The notes under the pieces were generated by a model. That model was not told the DNA's origin, made no database searches, and saw only the letters and a program-made list of their open reading frames with translations. Below, in pieces: positions 6,704-36,549 of a stretch of DNA of 53,530 bases (its first letter is position 1; the number at the start of each line of letters is the position of its first letter). This DNA is from Candidatus Cloacimonadota bacterium (GTDB lineage: Bacteria > Cloacimonadota > Cloacimonadia > Cloacimonadales > TCS61): NCBI GenBank assembly GCA_030620155.1, contig JAUXFF010000002.1, forward strand, positions 1 through 53,530, written 5' to 3'. Position numbers and translations under genes: made by a program.

Positions 6704-8116
6704 TTAGGTTGTCGATCTTAAAATTTCAGCCCAAACATCCTGGATGAGCGGAATATTTTTGAGTTTATCGAGAGCAACGGGAGTTTGATAATTTAATGAT
6801 CTATGAGGTCTGATAAAATTGTAGTTTGTAACAACCGGAGCAAGATGTGATGATGCACCTTCGATATTTTGGAAACAGTTAACGGCATAGTGTTTATAAG
6901 TCCGATTGACCCTTTCAACCAGATTTTTCAGGTATCTGTAAGTCGTTGAGATCAGGTCTTTGTTTTCCAGACCTATAACTTGTTTCAGGTCAAGATCAAT
7001 ACCTTCTTTTTTCAGAAAAGTAACAGCAGCCTGATAGGAAGGATTACCGTCTGCAACAAATAGCAACGGGTCTTTATTCTCATTTTTCTGATGTTTTTCA
7101 GAAGCCATATATAAGGTTTCAACAGCAGATAATTCACCTCTGTTATCAGATACTTTGTAGGCAGTAATTATAGAGCGGAATTTGGCAATAGCGAACCAGA
7201 CATAATGAAACTTACATTTAACTTTGATATATGTTTCATCACCGGCTTGTCCTCCGGGAACTTTTGGGATATTCTTCAAATTAAAATGATGACAAACAGT
7301 AGAAGCTGCTTTTGCCATACGGGCAACTGTGGAATGAGAAATCTTTATACCGAATATTTTTCTCAACGCAAATGCTGTTTCTCTTGTAGAATGTCTTAAT
7401 GTAATATGAAAAGTGAGAACAAGTCCGATTGTAGAAAGGGAACATCGGAATTTATCGAGTTTTTCCAACGGTGATTTAAGTTCGTTTGTAACAATGTCTT
7501 TCAGATTTATTTTATACTCCCTGTAAATGTAGCGAAGTTTGAATTGAGATGGTTTTTCTTTCTGCAATTTCTTTTCTACTGATGAAAGTTTTTCTTTATT
7601 TTCCAAATATCTGGGACAGTTGTCATTTCCGCATTTATACATTGTTACAAGCAACCTGCTTTTCCATTTGTATAAGGCTTTTTGACATATAGGACAATAA
7701 TATTTTGAAACTGATATTTTGGGAGTTTCGCAGAATGTCTTTTTGCATACTTTGCATTGATATTGGGTACTTTTCTTATCACCATTATTCACATAAATAT
7801 AGTTATGAGGTGCTCCGCAATGCGGGCATTTTATGTGTTTGCCAGGTTTATTTTTTCCACGATGTTTAATTGTTTTTATAGCTTCATTTTTAATAATTTC
7901 TTTATAATCAATTTCCAATTCTTTTTTATGAAAAGCATCGAGAGGAGGTTCCGGATCGACTTGGAACTTTCGGTAATTTGGATATTCTGGTTTTGACTCT
8001 TTGAATTTTGTATTTGAATCATTTAAAAGTTCGTTTAATACTTCAATGATTCTAATAACTTGTTCTCTTGTTAATTTTCGGCAAATCCATTTCGCAATAT
8101 TTTCAATTATTTTCAT
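6704..8116 (-). CDS. DDE transposase with N-terminal CxxC zinc-ribbons (IS1/IS1595/IS6-like architecture, family unresolved)
   Basis: The 470-aa product has CPHCG...YQCKVCKKTF and CPICQ...CGNDNCPRY zinc ribbons. Candidate DDE residues are in GDETYIKV, FVADGNPSY and NLVERVNRTYK. The C-terminal YNFIRPHRSLNYQTP is typical of transposase/integrase cores. Confidence 0.75.
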   Translation of the reverse strand: MKIIENIAKWICRKLTREQVIRIIEVLNELLNDSNTKFKESKPEYPNYRKFQVDPEPPLDAFHKKELEIDYKEIIKNEAIKTIKHRGKNKPGKHIKCPHCGAPHNYIYVNNGDKKSTQYQCKVCKKTFCETPKISVSKYYCPICQKALYKWKSRLLVTMYKCGNDNCPRYLENKEKLSSVEKKLQKEKPSQFKLRYIYREYKINLKDIVTNELKSPLEKLDKFRCSLSTIGLVLTFHITLRHSTRETAFALRKIFGIKISHSTVARMAKAASTVCHHFNLKNIPKVPGGQAGDETYIKVKCKFHYVWFAIAKFRSIITAYKVSDNRGELSAVETLYMASEKHQKNENKDPLLFVADGNPSYQAAVTFLKKEGIDLDLKQVIGLENKDLISTTYRYLKNLVERVNRTYKHYAVNCFQNIEGASSHLAPVVTNYNFIRPHRSLNYQTPVALDKLKNIPLIQDVWAEILRSTT

Positions 8117-8262
8117 GGGAATATCTCTTTCTTTTTTTTAGCTCATAAACCTAAATTTAGGGGGAGATTTTCCCAATGGTTATAAATGTATAGAAAATAA
8201 TATGTTAATTGAAAAATAAAAGGTTCTTTGTTACACAACCGGCTACAAAAGAAGGAGGGATT

Positions 8263-9699
8263 ATGAAAAAATTTTTGTTATTATTCGTTATTTTTATTCT
8301 TAGTTTTTCCATTTTATTGGGAAATTCAAACAGCACCCCAATCTTAAATGATCTAAATGAACATTACGAAGTATTCAAAGCTTTATATGACCAGTCCCAA
8401 AAATTCAATCTGGATTCAAAACTTCCAGTAGTAATACAGCAGATGTTCGACAATCAATCAACAGAAAATCTCCATAATCGTGTTTCTATCTACAATGTTG
8501 AAACTACAAGAGAATATATGCTATATCAGATGTTGTACGAAACCTGGGAAGGCGGAGAGTGGGTTTATATTTCTTTAGAAACTTTTACATATAATGATCA
8601 AAACCAAATGATAGAAATTTTGACTCAAATATGGGAATTCGGGGCATGGGTTAACTCAATGAATTTCATTAATACTTATGATATAAATGGAAACATAATT
8701 GAAATGATGATACAAATGTGGGATGCTACCGGTTGGCTCGACTATATGATTATGACAATAGAATACAATGAATACAACCTTATATATCAAATTCAAACGG
8801 AAATAAATATGTTTGTTGAATGGATTATTATTTCAATAACAACATATTATTATGATGGAGACCTGTTGTTGATAGAAGAAATTACACAAGCACATGATTT
8901 TTTCTCTGGCTTGTTAGTGAATTCAGATAGAACTACATATTTTTACGATGCTCAAGAAAATCAGATTGAGAGAATCTACCAGATATGGATAGATAATGAT
9001 TGGGTTAATGATGCAAGAACAACCTGGCAATATGATGGAAATAATTATGAAACCGAACGTATGCATCAATATTGGATTGGAGCTGATTGGGAAAATTCAA
9101 CTAGATATACATCCTCTTATGATGCAAGTTATAATTTAATAGAAGAATTAAAGGAAATATGGTCACCCTACAGGACCTGGGATTATTATAGAAAATGGAT
9201 ATATTCCTATGAAGCACAAGGAGTTATGACGGAAATACTTGCTCAGGACTGGGAAGGTGGAGCATGGGTAAATGATTATCTTTTTACTTATACCTATGAT
9301 GGAGATGATTATTTAATTGAAGAACTTGGCGAAACCTGGGAAGGTTCCTGGGTATATGATGAAAGGATCACATATACTTATCAAGAAACAAACACTGAGG
9401 ATACTGTTATTGATAATTTAATGATCTCACTATATAATTATCCTAATCCCTTCAACCCGGAAACGACTATCTCATTTTCTCTCGCAAAGAACACTAAGTA
9501 CGCGGAGTTAATAATTTATAATATCAAAGGACAAAAAATAAGAGAACTTCCCATCGTCACACCCTCTCCCTCTCAAACCCTCTCTGTTACCTGGAATGGA
9601 ACAGATGATTACGGAAAACCTGTATCTTCAGGAATATATCTATATAAACTGAGAACAGAAGATAACAGTAAATTAAAGAGGATGATGTTACTCAAGTAA
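8263..9699 (+). CDS. secreted repeat protein with T9SS-type C-terminal sorting domain
   Basis: GAAGGAGGG lies 5 nt upstream of the ATG at 8263, giving signal peptide MKKFLLLFVIFILSFSILLG. About 8-9 degenerate repeats of W..G.WVN.....(Y/T)YD..(N/Y).IE follow. The C-terminal tail is YNYPNPFNPETTISF...IYNIKGQKI...GIYLYKL. Confidence 0.8.
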   Translation: MKKFLLLFVIFILSFSILLGNSNSTPILNDLNEHYEVFKALYDQSQKFNLDSKLPVVIQQMFDNQSTENLHNRVSIYNVETTREYMLYQMLYETWEGGEWVYISLETFTYNDQNQMIEILTQIWEFGAWVNSMNFINTYDINGNIIEMMIQMWDATGWLDYMIMTIEYNEYNLIYQIQTEINMFVEWIIISITTYYYDGDLLLIEEITQAHDFFSGLLVNSDRTTYFYDAQENQIERIYQIWIDNDWVNDARTTWQYDGNNYETERMHQYWIGADWENSTRYTSSYDASYNLIEELKEIWSPYRTWDYYRKWIYSYEAQGVMTEILAQDWEGGAWVNDYLFTYTYDGDDYLIEELGETWEGSWVYDERITYTYQETNTEDTVIDNLMISLYNYPNPFNPETTISFSLAKNTKYAELIIYNIKGQKIRELPIVTPSPSQTLSVTWNGTDDYGKPVSSGIYLYKLRTEDNSKLKRMMLLK

Positions 9700-22750: not shown

Positions 22751-23932
22751 ATGGAAATTCATAACAATAGAAGAGTATTCTGGAACATCTGGACTTCTTA
22801 TGCAACATATTATTTTGGAAGAGCTAATTTAAGTATAGTTGTTCCAGCATTATTAGCTACGCACAAAAATTTAAATATGTATAACATCGGTCTGATCTCC
22901 AGCGGATTCTTTTTATCATATACAATAGGTCATTTTTTTCACGGTTTGTTTTCTGAAAGACATAATCCATTCTTATATATATCACTTGGTCTTATTGGCT
23001 CTTCTATAATAAATCTAATTCTTGGATTTTCTGCTGGATTTTTTGTAGTATTATTTATTGGTGAAATCATAGATGGGTTTTTTCAATCAATGGGTTGGTC
23101 TTCTTGTGTGCGAGCAAACGCGATAACGCAGAAGAAGGATGAAAGAGAAAGAACATCTATCTTACTGGGAACATCTTATCAAATAGGAAATTCAGTTGCT
23201 TGGTTAGTATCTGCATTTGCTGTAGGAAGTCGGGGTTGGCGAGCAGGATTCTGGGTCGCAGCTACATTTCTTTTTATAAGAGGAATACTATTATTGATCA
23301 CGAAACCTAAAATTGAGAGTGCTCCTACTCAAAAGGTTAGACACCAGGTAAAGACCATACTAACTTTTCCAATTTTAATGAGTGGACTCTCTTTTTGTTT
23401 TCTTAATATGATCAGATATGGTATAATTGTATGGATTCCTTTATATTTATTCCAGACTCAAAATATGGTTGTTGAACAAATGGGTGAATTAGGTTTGAAA
23501 GTTTGTTTAATTCCCATTGCAGGGGTGTTTGGAACACTAATATATAATGTTTTGAAATTCCGTAGAGATGTAGTAACGGTTGTTTTCTTATTATTTTTAG
23601 CGTTCAGTTTCGTTGTGCTTCCTTTTACAAAAGGGATGTTATCTATATTTATATTATTAGTTGGGAGTTTTTTCTTGTATGGTCCTCATGTTTTTTTAAG
23701 TGCAACTCTTCCAACACGCTATTTTGATAAACAAGTAGTGGCTGCATCAAGTGGATTTATTGCTGGAATGGGATATGTCGGAACAGTTTTTGTAGGATTG
23801 ATAATTCCTGTTTTGGTGTCGTCAGCAAATGGTAGCTGGAAAAATGTTTTTATATTTTGGGCAATTCTCTCATTTACAGTAGTGGCAATTATGATTACAT
23901 TTGTCTGGAAATATGAATTGAAAAAAACCTAA
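22751..23932 (+). CDS. MFS transporter, organophosphate:Pi antiporter-like (GlpT/UhpC family)
   Basis: 393 aa with about 12 hydrophobic segments. The N-terminal W.SYATYYFGRANLSIVVPAL resembles the OPA-family Y..YY..R.N...A.P.L signature. Confidence 0.6.
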   Translation: MEIHNNRRVFWNIWTSYATYYFGRANLSIVVPALLATHKNLNMYNIGLISSGFFLSYTIGHFFHGLFSERHNPFLYISLGLIGSSIINLILGFSAGFFVVLFIGEIIDGFFQSMGWSSCVRANAITQKKDERERTSILLGTSYQIGNSVAWLVSAFAVGSRGWRAGFWVAATFLFIRGILLLITKPKIESAPTQKVRHQVKTILTFPILMSGLSFCFLNMIRYGIIVWIPLYLFQTQNMVVEQMGELGLKVCLIPIAGVFGTLIYNVLKFRRDVVTVVFLLFLAFSFVVLPFTKGMLSIFILLVGSFFLYGPHVFLSATLPTRYFDKQVVAASSGFIAGMGYVGTVFVGLIIPVLVSSANGSWKNVFIFWAILSFTVVAIMITFVWKYELKKT

Positions 23933-23945
23933 AAATATTCTTTAT

Positions 23946-24010
23946 TAAAATCCTTATAATCATTCTTTGGTTATAAGGATTTTTTTATTTGTTTTCACCT
24001 GGATAATCCA
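23946..24010. repeat. 65-bp direct repeat, left copy (islet boundary)
   Basis: Matches 25883-25947 at 64 of 65 positions. It contains the hairpin/terminator plus a duplicated copy of the last ~17 codons of 25897..26823. Confidence 0.9.
23949..23987 (+). terminator. Rho-independent terminator after the MFS gene
   Basis: aatccttataa-tcattctttgg-ttataaggatt forms an 11-bp stem and is followed by tttttt. Confidence 0.65.
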
Positions 24011-24132
24011 AAAAAGAAATTGAGAATTAGCTGGCAATTAAGATTCTGAAAGAAAAGATTTTGCAGGGACAGAAGGTGGAGATTGGGTTTGATGGGAAGG
24101 TGTTTTTGTTTTAATGTATTTGATGTTTTGGA

Positions 24133-25164
24133 TTAATTATTTTGTGATAATTTACTCAGAATATTTTCTGCTTTAATTATTGGTTCAAACCATTGATATA
24201 AATCATCAAAATCTAATTCTTTTGGAATTTGATATTCTTCAACAAATTTACCTTCTATTTTAGGATAAAAAAGTGATTCGCAACTTCTTCTAGGATGATT
24301 AGGTATCCATGATTTATAAAAATCTTTTTTATATAATAAATGGTAAGTTGGCATAAATGAATGCCAATGTTTTGATAAAATATTACGGTCTTTTTTATCA
24401 ATAATTTCTATATGTTCAAGTTTTCTTTCACTATATTTCTTCCAAGCATTTCTCAACCGATTATAAGCTTCACGATCGGTGTCAGATGCATTAAATCCAA
24501 ATATAGTAACTGAAAACGCCTTACTTAAAGCATAATTAAGTATGTTCCATTCATTTAGATTGAAAAAATCATTATAATTTTTTTTTGGTATTGGATAAAA
24601 AAGATTGTAGGGAGTTAATTTTTTATCGCAATCGGGACAGAAAGTTCCATTTTTTCCATAAATATTATGCTTTGAGCAATATCCGATACGGACATTACCA
24701 TGCAAATGTATAATTTGAGGTAAGGGAATATTTTCTATGTTTCTTTCATATGCATCAAATAAAAAGGGATCCCAATTAAAAGTTGCAACAAAATCTTTTG
24801 GTCTAAGTGACATTAACAAATGATCATATAAAGTTGGTCTGTTAGGTAATTTTAATTTATCAAAATAATTATATACTATGTTTTCAATTTCCTTTATTAT
24901 TTTTGAATATTTATCTTTTTCATATAGTTCGGAATAAATTTTCTCAAAATCTTTTCCGTTATATTCAATACCATTATTAAGAAGTAATTCATCAAGACCA
25001 ACAATTTCAATTAAGTCATTCATTAATGGAATTTTGTTACCATTTGCATCCCCATTTTCAAATGCTTGTTTACTAGCACCTGCTCCTAAAATTACAACAT
25101 GTGGTTTTAGTCTCCTTGGTTCGTTGATAAGTTGTTCTTTATTAATTATCGTACGTTTTCCCAT
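24133..25164 (-). CDS. SIR2-like (SIR2_2-type) NAD-binding/NADase-family protein
   Basis: 343 aa carrying the ordered sirtuin-superfamily landmarks: VILGAGAS (GAGxS), ATFNWDPF (TTNYD/TQNID-like), IIHLHGN (catalytic HG), C-x20-CPDC zinc-like cluster, and TIFGFNASDTD (G(Y/F)S..D). Confidence 0.65.
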   Translation of the reverse strand: MGKRTIINKEQLINEPRRLKPHVVILGAGASKQAFENGDANGNKIPLMNDLIEIVGLDELLLNNGIEYNGKDFEKIYSELYEKDKYSKIIKEIENIVYNYFDKLKLPNRPTLYDHLLMSLRPKDFVATFNWDPFLFDAYERNIENIPLPQIIHLHGNVRIGYCSKHNIYGKNGTFCPDCDKKLTPYNLFYPIPKKNYNDFFNLNEWNILNYALSKAFSVTIFGFNASDTDREAYNRLRNAWKKYSERKLEHIEIIDKKDRNILSKHWHSFMPTYHLLYKKDFYKSWIPNHPRRSCESLFYPKIEGKFVEEYQIPKELDFDDLYQWFEPIIKAENILSKLSQNN

Positions 25165-25167
25165 TTA

Positions 25168-25386
25168 TTAAATATCTACTATTTCATCATGTATTGTATC
25201 ACAAATAATACATACAAAATCGCCTTCAGGATATTCAAGATTGTTTGCAATTCTTGTATAAATATCGTTGAAATCAGGTATTCTATTTACAAATAAACCA
25301 GAACCAAATGAAACAGATTTCCCACAGTGATTACAAATTTCAACGAGTTTCTTACTTCCAACTTTTTCAGATATTTTCATAATCAA
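25168..25386 (-). CDS. small zinc-ribbon protein (CxxC...CxxC), unknown function
   Basis: 72 aa with CNHC ... CIIC. Its stop codon lies 3 nt from the SIR2-like start codon, which suggests translational coupling. Confidence 0.55.
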   Translation of the reverse strand: MIMKISEKVGSKKLVEICNHCGKSVSFGSGLFVNRIPDFNDIYTRIANNLEYPEGDFVCIICDTIHDEIVDI

Positions 25387-25401
25387 TTCTATAGTAATTT
25401 T

Positions 25402-25680
25402 TTAGGAGTTCCAATACCTACCTACAAACGGATCTAAAACCAGCTTACCTTCATGACTAAAAAGTTCAATGCACTTTTAAGCTAAAGAAATTGGAAATGT
25501 AGCTGGGTGTTTTTCTTTATCTCTGACATCACGTCTTTCATAAAGAAATTGCCATACACCAATTTGGTTTTTAAGCCACAGTTTTTCTGTTAAACAATTT
25601 ATATGAGTTCTTGGGCAATTACAAGTTCTTTTGTATCCAATATTCAGCTTTTTATTTTCTAATGCTCTTTGACTTTCCAA
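25402..25680 (-). pseudogene. relic of an N4/N6 DNA methyltransferase (beta-class)
   Basis: ...GVWQF...KHPATFPISLA is followed by an in-frame TAA (25477-25479). The frame then continues KCIELFSHEGKLVLDPFVG, and the GxGTT motif is lost by frameshift (GRYWNS*). No N-terminal DPPY region is present. Confidence 0.6.
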
Positions 25681-25882
25681 AATGCAACTCCTCTCTAATT
25701 ATTTTTCTTATAAAGAATATCTTTTTTATTAAAGTATTTTTTTAGATTTTTTGTAAAGTAATAAAAACTACAATTTTTTCACCTTTTTACAATTAACTTC
25801 TGAATCTTCTAAAAAAGGGAGGAAAACTGGTTCTAACAGTTTTCATTTTTTTTAAAACACCTGAATTAATTAAGGAATATTG

Positions 25883-25947
25883 TAAAATCCTTATAATCAT
25901 TCTTTGATTATAAGGATTTTTTTATTTGTTTTCACCTGGATAATCCA
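25883..25947. repeat. 65-bp direct repeat, right copy (overlaps 3' end of 25897..26823)
   Basis: See 23946-24010. Confidence 0.9.
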
Positions 25948-26823
25948 GAGAACTATCATCCAGATATTTGCGACTCCAATTGTATAAATGAAGAAAATTA
26001 TCGGTCTGAATAAAATAACTGATATGATAAAAACAAAAGCATGTGCAGTAGGTCCTATCCAGAACCAGAGAAGGATTAACATCTTATTTGCATGATAATA
26101 TTCTTTAGGGTCATATTCTTCTTTTTCATTTAATTGAAAAAGTTGAAGATGTGAATATCCCAGGTATACTGCAATCAGAATTTTATCTAATAATTTCCCT
26201 CTCTGATGTTTGATTTTTTTCAATTCGCCCGAGAACTTTTTCTTAGCTTCCCAGGTTGATGTTGATTTGCCCAGGCCATGTGCCATGAATTCTGCCCGAT
26301 AATAATCTACTAACATAGCATGGAAAATCTGGCTGACAGCTGCAATAACAAGAAGAGTCCAATGAGATATTGAAAGAGAAAAGGAAAGTTGATAGTCTGC
26401 ATTAGATAAACCTATTCCTAAACCAACATAAACAGAAACTCCAACAATATAATCAGCAAATCCATCTATAATTCTGCCTACTGCTGTCCCACTGTTCTTT
26501 AAACGTGCTATCATGCCGTCAACACAATCTAACACCATGCAGAAAAAATATAGACTTCCTGCAATTACAAAGCAGGTTACAGTCCCCCAAGAAAATAAAT
26601 ATCCACTGATAATTCCTACAATTATGGTCATAAGTGAAACCTGGTTTGGAGTTACATTTGTACGATATAAAAGTTTTACAAATATAAAGGCAATAGGTCG
26701 AAGAATATAAAGGGTTAAAGTTTCATCGAAAATAATATGTTTTAATGATCTTTTGAATTCCCTGAACATTTTAATGTTATATTCTAAGAATTCATCTCGC
26801 ACTTTCTTACTTTTATTAATCAT
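25897..26823 (-). CDS. CDP-alcohol phosphatidyltransferase family membrane protein
   Basis: LDCVDGMIARLKNSGTAVGRIIDGFADYI is a complete match to D-x2-D-G-x2-A-R-x8-G-x3-D-x3-D. The protein has multiple TM segments. Confidence 0.85.
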   Translation of the reverse strand: MINKSKKVRDEFLEYNIKMFREFKRSLKHIIFDETLTLYILRPIAFIFVKLLYRTNVTPNQVSLMTIIVGIISGYLFSWGTVTCFVIAGSLYFFCMVLDCVDGMIARLKNSGTAVGRIIDGFADYIVGVSVYVGLGIGLSNADYQLSFSLSISHWTLLVIAAVSQIFHAMLVDYYRAEFMAHGLGKSTSTWEAKKKFSGELKKIKHQRGKLLDKILIAVYLGYSHLQLFQLNEKEEYDPKEYYHANKMLILLWFWIGPTAHAFVFIISVILFRPIIFFIYTIGVANIWMIVLWIIQVKTNKKILIIKE

Positions 26824-36103: not shown

Positions 36104-36279
36104 TTATATAACCCGCAGTACCGTGTACTATATGTTTTCTCGAACCCACAACAAGTGTGGACGTCTACCTTGTCTGCTTTACAGATCCGGATCGTGTCCG
36201 GCATGTGCGCCACAAATGGCTCGACTTCCGATTATCATTTAGTTCAGAAACAAAAATAATAACACGTATACCGCAGGCT
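36104..36279 (-). ncRNA. ssrS: probable 6S RNA
   Basis: A GC-enriched ~176-nt non-coding gap lies directly downstream of zapA on the minus strand. The ends pair (5' GCCUGCGGUAUACGUGU with 3' ACACGGUACUGCGGGU). A second helix is GUUUCUGAAC/GUUCGAGAAAC. There is an apical CCGGA-CACGA-UCCGG hairpin and a CCACA-CUUGU-UGUGG hairpin on the 3' side. zapA-ssrS synteny is known from E. coli. Ends are approximate. Confidence 0.5.
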
Positions 36280-36549
36280 TTATATTTCATCTTCAAATTT
36301 AATTAACAGTTCGTTTAACTGCTTTAACTCACCACTTAAATTCTTATTAATTTCTAACTCATTGAAATAATTCTCAATTAAAATTAGAGCATGAAGAACA
36401 AACAATTTACTTTGATCAACAGTATTAAACTTTTCGTTAAGTTCTTCTAACTGTGTTCCAAGATACTCAGCATGTTTTAGAAGTTCATCCGGGTTATTAC
36501 TTTTTATATAATATTTTTTCCCAAGAATTTCAACTTCTACTGTTTTCAT
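36280..36549 (-). CDS. zapA: cell division protein ZapA
   Basis: 89 aa. V.ILGKKY.I........L...A.YL...L.EL followed by a coiled-coil tail is typical of ZapA. The gene lies downstream of pheT, as in many genomes. Confidence 0.7.
   Translation of the reverse strand: MKTVEVEILGKKYYIKSNNPDELLKHAEYLGTQLEELNEKFNTVDQSKLFVLHALILIENYFNELEINKNLSGELKQLNELLIKFEDEI

Follow-up and report, generated by a model that had tools for sequence, protein, structure and literature searches.

Introduction

Single-gene defence proteins built on a sirtuin-like (SIR2) fold are not new. AbiH (PF14253), an abortive-infection protein of Lactococcus lactis encoded by one gene, is now recognized as SIR2-like, is carried on mobile elements and has been proposed to act by depleting NAD+; we take its length to be about 346 amino acids (aa). 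Nor is it new that small defence cassettes can enter genomes while copying a stretch of their target. Restriction-modification (RM) systems undergo what has been termed "insertion with long target duplication", defined by an insert of <20 kb, the required presence of restriction (R) and modification (M) homologs, and a duplication of >30 bp; such inserts have been documented without mobility genes, and some of the repeats overlap the 3′ end of a gene (Furuta et al. 2010, PMC2853133). Here we analyze a locus at which both themes meet, in a stretch of 53,530 nucleotides (hereafter the window) from an uncultured Cloacimonadota bacterium (assembly GCA_030620155.1, contig JAUXFF010000002.1). It is an islet of about 1.9 kb between 65-bp direct repeats that encodes a 343-aa protein with a predicted SIR2 fold and, directly upstream, a 72-aa CxxC...CxxC protein (zn72, a member of a family that we call zn70).

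A preliminary description of the islet had proposed that these two genes form a minimal abortive-infection module, with the zinc ribbon as sensor or antitoxin, and had noted that a short stand-alone SIR2 protein coupled to a tiny zinc-ribbon partner does not match the architectures of known SIR2 defence systems; a short stand-alone SIR2 defence protein does, however, have a precedent in AbiH. Our preferred reading, to which we assign a probability of roughly 0.6, is a different one: the islet would be a decayed mobile RM-like cassette whose nuclease genes were replaced by a stand-alone SIR2 effector, with zn70 as a leftover of the original cassette.

An islet inserted with target duplication

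The features of the islet and its borders are as follows, in window coordinates.

22751..23932, plus strand: convergent flanking gene, MFS transporter (PF07690); its 3′ end abuts a single hairpin in empty-site genomes
23946..24015, no strand: direct repeat copy L, on the MFS side; repeats the final 17 codons of the target gene cdp in non-coding form, together with a bidirectional terminator hairpin; its right flank aligns to empty sites
24011..24132, minus strand: right end of the islet; 24011-24062 is conserved with the islet of a relative (77%)
24133..25164, minus strand: gene for the 343-aa stand-alone protein, SIR2 fold by AlphaFold2, Foldseek and family alignment; later replacement cargo; homology with the sister locus L084 ends at 25164
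25168..25386, minus strand: zn70/zn72, CxxC...CxxC protein of 72 aa, or of 70 aa if started from the ATG at 25380; retained component of the original RM-like cassette
25386..25414, minus strand: promoter-like site, TTGGAA-17-TAGAAT, directly upstream of zn72; a consensus match only, and a candidate promoter for a zn72-SIR2 transcript
25387..25680, minus strand: truncated Type II DNA methyltransferase, of which the open reading frame (ORF) 25477..25680 encodes 67 aa (PADLOC MTase_II PDLC03363, E 8.5e-26)
25681..25882, minus strand: left end of the islet, an AT-rich leader preceding the methyltransferase stub, in which 25822-25844 forms a small hairpin; conserved with the relative
25883..25952, no strand: direct repeat copy R, on the cdp side; gives the functional cdp 3′ end, stop codon and hairpin 25884-25920; its left flank aligns to empty sites
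25897..26823, minus strand: target gene, CDP-alcohol phosphatidyltransferase (cdp; PF01066, E 6e-12), with orthologs in 24 loci

The repeats at 23946-24010 and 25883-25947 agree at 64 of 65 positions, can be extended to about 70 nt at 96% identity, and are the only two copies of the 65-mer in the window; 100 shuffles yielded no match. Each copy contains a terminator-like hairpin with a 16-bp stem and a T-run (23947-23983 and 25884-25920). Copy R takes in the final 17 codons of cdp with its stop, and copy L begins 14 nt past the stop of the convergent MFS gene. The 64/65 match and the make-up of the repeat from a terminator hairpin and the cdp 3′ end had been noted in the preliminary description and were confirmed here. 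So were the 343-aa and the 72-aa gene, which are both intact and lie within 3 nt of each other, and the decayed methyltransferase beside them.

Whether the cdp 3′ end was duplicated upon insertion, as also proposed there, can be judged from genomes with an unoccupied site. A search of species genomes with the cdp protein recovered 24 loci, nearly all from Cloacimonadota, to which phylum the window is thereby assigned, and six of them (L152, L153, L154, L158, L166, and L175) present LicD, cdp, and the convergent MFS gene with the 65-mer occurring once and with the cdp and MFS gene ends about 40 nt apart. At both junctions the window can be aligned with them: the sequence left of copy R is cdp, the sequence right of copy L is the MFS 3′ end, whose C-terminal peptide VWKYELKK is retained at the junction, and the islet-specific sequence occupies the inner side of each repeat copy. 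Since both flanks align to single-copy empty sites, the islet is a true insertion, upon which a 65-70 bp target comprising a gene 3′ end and its terminator was duplicated. It is not an assembly artefact, as two other, independent metagenome assemblies (L081 and L082) show the identical structure at 99.9% identity. The GC content of the islet is 25-29%, as against 31-38% in the flanks.

What the islet contains today falls short of a functional Type II RM system. The 67-aa methyltransferase ORF spans only model positions 6-66 of 294 and is thus a truncated stub, compared with 294-303 aa for an intact enzyme, and the window contains no endonuclease. The 90 nt at 25387-25476 correspond, by contiguous DNA homology, to the remainder of a longer, 94-aa stub in a sister lineage, to which we turn next.

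Replacement of the nuclease genes by the SIR2-like gene

A sister Cloacimonadota lineage (L083-L088; metagenome-assembled genome (MAG) CSMAG_2978) carries an islet at the identical site, directly after cdp. Its content differs: zn70 here follows a methyltransferase stub of 94 aa and precedes an unrelated protein of 346 aa and a 180-aa homolog of MvaI/BcnI-family endonucleases, and a degenerate second repeat copy lies at the islet end. DNA homology between the window and this islet (L084) is unbroken from 26875 to 25164, through the cdp interior, copy R, the methyltransferase stub, and zn70, at 82-88% identity. It ceases 4 nt past the zn70 stop, which is exactly the ATG of the 343-aa gene, and it restarts within about 20 nt of the stop of that gene to run through 24062-23890. 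Because the homology breaks and resumes at the two ends of the 343-aa gene, this gene replaced, ORF for ORF, the 346-aa protein gene (of a family that we call P345) and the MvaI/BcnI-like gene. The direction of the exchange follows from the wider distribution of the four-gene arrangement, which we take as ancestral because it recurs across phyla.

Indeed, the same gene order with an intact methyltransferase of 296-393 aa is found in other phyla (L089, L104, L115, and L124), the enzymes of L089 and L104 measuring 296-303 aa. The zn70 family itself is represented at 63 species loci, bacterial and archaeal, and has a tightly conserved consensus, EICNHCGxSVSFGSGLFVNRIPDFNDIxTRIxNNLxYPxGDFVCIxCD. 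Profile searches built from the cassette proteins and run on the 63 non-redundant zn70 loci detected the methyltransferase in 26, P345 (~345 aa) in 22, and the MvaI/BcnI-like nuclease in 15; wherever P345 is present it immediately follows zn70, except in L122. The remaining loci have other RM neighbours, namely N6_N4_Mtase, D12, N6_Mtase, Eco57I, EcoO109I, ThaI, and TdeIII. These census genes, together with the other RM neighbours, mark zn70 as an accessory of RM-type cassettes. Neither zn70 nor P345 has an above-cutoff match in Pfam or PADLOC, and zn70 is negative against NCBIfam too; the zn70 model (pLDDT 80) matched no PDB fold, and P345 gave weak matches to a YhcG PD-(D/E)XK domain and to a Csa3-like winged helix-turn-helix (wHTH).

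Two further observations concern this cassette. It recurs, without annotation, across L089-L151, for example at L089:4080-6888, L115:3806-6877, and L084:912-3006, with zn70 proteins of 60-80 aa. Methyltransferase stubs of 94, 104, 139, and 160 aa lie upstream of zn70 in several phyla (also in L141, L102, and L122) next to an intact zn70 and ~345-aa protein, and the N-terminus of the stub has an invariant C-x-C-x3-H-x2-C motif.

These comparisons bear directly on the two-gene module of the preliminary description. The zn72 stop lies 3 nt ahead of the start of the 343-aa ORF, so close that the two genes are probably co-transcribed, and zn72 is intact and mildly constrained (dN/dS 0.32 against the sister zn70). 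In the cassettes to which it belongs, zn70 directly adjoins the downstream P345 gene or overlaps with it, and it could conceivably be an adaptor that tolerates effector swaps. The pairing nevertheless fails wherever it is looked for elsewhere. In 80 of 80 loci with SIR2-like homologs, zn70 is absent (tblastn down to E=10), a scan for the CxxC pattern revealed no cryptic CxxC ORF upstream of the SIR2-like gene in 76 loci, and none of the 63 zn70 loci outside this strain carries a SIR2-like gene. The closest relative couples an 89%-identical zn70 with a different, 346-aa gene, and the junction shows that the present adjacency arose through replacement. Conserved co-occurrence of the two genes is therefore missing, an outcome that the preliminary description itself had named as counting against the pair, and we consider a dedicated zn72-SIR2 module highly improbable. 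The same low odds apply to a more elaborate version, in which zn70 is a portable adaptor or regulator for interchangeable effectors (P345 with the MvaI/BcnI-like nuclease elsewhere, a SIR2 NADase here) and the swap created a working zn70-SIR2 pair.

The relative ages of the islet and its host genes are less straightforward. Between the two lineages, the islet (25851-25164) is 88% identical with a zn70 dS of 0.19, as compared with a dS of 0.87 for cdp (26875-25897). This discrepancy suggests that the islet was exchanged after the hosts diverged, by gene conversion or by a later, possibly independent acquisition.

Alternatively, the repeats could be attL and attR of a miniature integrative element, whose tyrosine or serine recombinase acted in trans or has since been lost. 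The duplicated segment, a gene 3′ end plus a hairpin, is typical of attachment (att) sites, two lineages have the islet at exactly the same site, and the divergence figures just given are compatible with repeated site-specific acquisition. However, in neither the window lineage nor the sister lineage is there an integrase, transposase, or recombinase within the islet or 10 kb to either side of it, an absence that the preliminary description had remarked on for the islet, and the element measures only 1.9-2.5 kb. RM cassettes with exactly such a structure are known that have no recombinases either (Furuta et al. 2010, PMC2853133). We therefore think a site-specific integrative element unlikely, though a rival to insertion of the RM type.

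A SIR2 fold with a conserved active site

The 343-aa protein has no match in Pfam, PADLOC, or NCBIfam, nor to any PDB chain by sequence. It stays without a match to SIR2 (PF02146) and SIR2_2 (PF13289) at the curated Pfam thresholds, and among the relatives, one reaches 13 bits with SIR2_2, short of the 24.5 cutoff. As sequence and profile searches gave nothing usable, the fold was recognized only by structure prediction. An AlphaFold2 run with an alignment of 34 homologs returned a model with a pLDDT of 90 and a pTM of 0.90. All 50 matches listed by Foldseek against the PDB belong to the SIR2 family, at probability 1.00 and TM ~0.5; SIR2/HerA (8wld) is the best of them (E 2e-8, TM 0.5), and PsSIR2, Sir2Af, CobB, Sir2Tm, SIRT2, PfSir2A, and DSR2 are among the others. 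In the Foldseek viral library only two matches fall below E 0.001, both of them to Sir2-family proteins, as is the third-ranked match (E 7e-3). On the strength of this model, the protein is predicted to have the SIR2 fold, in agreement with the superfamily assignment first made from motifs.

The motifs themselves have also withstood scrutiny. In a family alignment of 35 sequences, whose homologs are 47-60% identical to the window protein, the landmarks originally picked out (GAGAS, FNWD, HLHG, and the Cys cluster) fall in invariant or nearly invariant columns: GAGAS at 27-31, TFNWDP at 128-133, HLHGNVR at 153-159, and C163/H166/C176/C179. Further such columns are YP at 190-191, G223, D230, and a C-terminal PRRxCE at 291-296. 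From their order, we read GAGAS as the NAD loop, TFNWD and HLHG as carrying the catalytic Asn/Asp and His, respectively, and the Cys/His cluster that directly follows this His as a zinc module (CxxH...CxxC). Given their conservation, the catalytic apparatus looks intact. The family further shares an extra helical insertion (residues ~48-118) and a C-terminal helical region.

The state of the gene speaks to yet another possibility, namely that the entire islet is debris without function, the SIR2 gene being no exception. Its methyltransferase has been cut short, the nuclease genes have been lost, and a dedicated promoter is not evident. However, the SIR2 ORF is full length and has kept every invariant residue of its family, no more than one residue of its product is changed in two other assemblies, and zn72 is intact as well. 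It is thus very improbable that the islet as a whole is dead, even though its RM portion has decayed.

A large family without a fixed partner

The family to which the 343-aa protein belongs is large. It comprises 3351 matches in a 90%-identity database; in a 50%-identity library, the cutoffs E<=1e-3 and E<=1e-30 give 1472 and 458 clusters, mostly of 330-350 aa. At least 475 species genomes carry it, spread over many phyla of bacteria and also some archaea; Legionella, Vibrio, and Aeromonas are among them, and their plasmids have it as well. No phage record encodes it. Its members are labelled "hypothetical protein" in RefSeq, and literature searches by RefSeq accession and for stand-alone SIR2 systems yielded no description of the family.

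Clustering of all ORFs in 80 homolog loci revealed no conserved neighbour, the largest neighbour family occurring in 6 of the 80. Some neighbourhoods are of the defence type. On the Legionella plasmid pLPL, a homolog lies beside a type I-F CRISPR-Cas system, and on Vibrio pOCN014 another is placed between SIR2, SLATT, and ATPase genes and McrBC. Immediate neighbours elsewhere include ResIII, Type III/IIG RM, Mrr, Schlafen/AlbA_2, and Lon/BrxL-like proteins and integrases, and two loci resemble prophage or transposon regions. The expectation that homologs sit in defence contexts thus holds for a part of them, in defence and mobile-element regions, and fails for the many that are found among metabolic genes.

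The gene travels by itself. The MAG with the sister islet also has a 60%-identical homolog of the 343-aa protein at an unrelated locus, beside a GNAT acetyltransferase gene (L001), which shows the 343-aa gene to be mobile independently. A tight bracket of direct repeats (34-179 bp) surrounds 4 of 71 SIR2-like homologs (L013:5701-7074, L028:5789-7068, L033:5919-7056, and L048:5805-7233), compared with 6 of 351 control ORFs (Fisher p=0.07), a suggestive hint that insertion with target duplication may be a property of the single gene too.

Several curious variants exist within the family. Longer homologs mostly have no Pfam domain, with one exception, L035:4945-6993, in which HTH_31 and Peptidase_M78 (ImmA/IrrE-type) domains are fused to the SIR2-like protein in one ORF; in L056:4551-5669, an HTH_31 + Peptidase_M78 protein is encoded by a separate gene just upstream of the SIR2-like gene. 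GNAT genes lie directly beside homologs in two unrelated lineages (L001:5211-5996; L180-L184, ~8097-8519), and in L180 a gene of the isochorismatase family lies 2.4 kb from the homolog. The GNAT adjacency is compatible with an acetylation-related role, or may be due to chance. Plasmids of Enterococcus faecalis (L179:2501-2797 and L178:3001-3502) carry truncated remnants of ~100 aa, 39% identical, between aminoglycoside-resistance genes (spw, apmA) and an IS3 element; these remnants were considered as a bridge to AbiH and, being truncated, were of no help.

How the islet may have arisen and acted

We propose the following sequence of events. First, a Type II RM-like cassette, comprising a methyltransferase, zn70, a ~345-aa PD-(D/E)XK/wHTH-like P345, and an MvaI/BcnI-like nuclease, inserted into the terminator shared by the convergent cdp and MFS genes, duplicating 65-70 bp. 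Second, the cassette decayed, its methyltransferase being cut to a stub of 67 codons. Third, the 343-aa SIR2-fold gene took the place of the two downstream genes in an almost exact ORF-for-ORF exchange. The insertion with target duplication, the decayed state of the RM cassette, and the ORF-precise replacement are shown by the comparisons above; what follows on transcription and activity is a proposal. Since the replacement, zn70 would merely be co-transcribed with the SIR2 gene from the promoter-like site of the old cassette (25414-25386), and the transcript would presumably be terminated at the copy-L hairpin. By analogy with AbiH and DSR, the SIR2 protein may act alone as an NAD+-consuming effector, either an NADase or an ADP-ribosyltransferase, which would stay inactive until an infection cue is sensed, probably via its own C-terminal region, and would then abort the infection. 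We regard the chances of a defence role for the 343-aa protein as evenly balanced, and those of the whole family being an unrecognized, widespread single-gene SIR2 antiphage system as slightly less than even.

A number of observations weigh against this account and should be stated together. For long-target-duplication insertion, the RM literature likewise offers no molecular mechanism (Furuta et al. 2010, PMC2853133). The repeats of the window are 98% identical, whereas the second copy of the sister islet has diverged with indels, a contrast for which gene conversion or an independent, more recent insertion is therefore needed. For a dead gene, the methyltransferase stub has an odd dN/dS of 0.11 (window 25477-25680, minus strand, versus L084:912-1196). 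On the side of the effector, the lack of any database match at the sequence level has been described above. Many homologs lie among ordinary metabolic genes, GNAT acetyltransferases adjoin some of them, and RM, defence, or mobile-element genes make up ~15% of immediate neighbours by an informal count. Finally, the zinc module and the "HGNV...C" signature presumably resemble those of true deacylating sirtuins.

The last of these points lead to a further explanation, in which the 343-aa protein would be no immune effector but an accessory sirtuin of the ordinary sort, regulating metabolism as a protein deacylase or ADP-ribosyltransferase, and would lie in the islet incidentally. Its zinc module and HG-x6-C signature are of the canonical sirtuin-like kind; CobB, Sir2Af, and SIRT2 are matched by Foldseek as well as the defence SIR2 proteins are; several homologs are found among metabolic genes, sometimes beside a GNAT and an isochorismatase-family gene; and PADLOC does not recognize the protein. 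Set against these are the patchy spread of the family over bacteria and archaea at 40-60% identity and without synteny, the plasmid copies inside defence islands, and the MAG that has its homolog away from the islet site while that site holds the other cassette. In addition, the gene was here inserted into an RM islet, and such sequence similarity as the family shows is weak and to AbiH instead of to SIR2 (PF02146). An accessory sirtuin that happens to lie in the islet is therefore doubtful in our judgment, and we retain the reading of a stand-alone SIR2 effector in a decayed RM-like cassette.

Should the family indeed consist of immune effectors, current defence catalogues lack a widespread single-gene system of the sirtuin type. 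The family would be easy to test, as it amounts to one 1-kb gene with obvious residues for mutation, N130 and H155. The islet in addition illustrates two processes cleanly and in nature: RM-type insertion with long target duplication, here beyond the cultured taxa in which it was described, and ORF-precise replacement of effector genes within a decaying defence cassette. It also serves as a warning that close gene spacing by itself does not define a module.

Elsewhere in the window, a 6S RNA is encoded at 36106-36282 on the minus strand (Rfam RF00013, 63 bits, full-length model match), adjoining the RNase Y gene region.

Comparison with known systems

As an insertion, the islet resembles the RM inserts of Furuta et al. 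(2010, PMC2853133) in three respects: it is a small cassette without a mobility gene (1.87 kb here, compared with the <20 kb bound), its repeats exceed 30 bp (65-70 bp here) and align to a single copy in relatives, and a repeat overlaps the 3′ end of a gene. It differs from them in its decayed RM content, half of which has given way to a non-RM gene, and in its host, an uncultured member of the Cloacimonadota. Where those inserts contain R and M homologs, the window has the M stub alone, and the sister islet has an M stub and the MvaI/BcnI homolog.

As a protein, the 343-aa product shares the predicted SIR2 fold and the catalytic Asn and His with SIR2-HerA (Nezha), DSR1/DSR2, ThsA, and the short prokaryotic Argonaute (pAgo) SIR2-APAZ systems. 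Unlike these, it has no HerA, TIR, SLOG, pAgo, or APAZ partner or domain, and at 343 aa it is far shorter than the ~1000-aa DSR proteins. PADLOC found no match for the window protein or 35 relatives, and partners of the Thoeris, DSR, SIR2-HerA, and pAgo types are absent from the 25 most frequent Pfam/PADLOC families of 116 immediate neighbours; the view that the locus departs from these architectures thus stands. With the canonical sirtuins (CobB, Sir2Tm, Sir2Af, and SIRT2), the protein has the fold in common, as well as the motifs GAGxS and HG and the zinc module directly behind the catalytic His. The differences are the lack of a sequence-level match to Pfam SIR2 or any PDB chain, the extra helical insertion and C-terminal region, and the patchy, accessory distribution of the family.

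The closest likeness is to AbiH, which is likewise a single gene of similar size with a predicted SIR2/sirtuin-like fold; the one-gene architecture of 330-350 aa, with no fixed partner in 80 loci, is shared as well. In sequence the two appear weakly and distantly related. Sub-threshold matches to the Pfam AbiH profile were obtained for 3 of 35 family members (best E 6e-5), one of which, P0002, aligns with profile positions 98-251 of 260 and scores 22.2 bits, below the gathering score of 30.9; the window protein (no match at E<=1) and 32 of 35 relatives have no PF14253 match. A stand-alone SIR2 defence protein is thus already known from the AbiH precedent, and what is of interest here is a large unannotated SIR2 family and the replacement of effector genes within an RM-derived islet.

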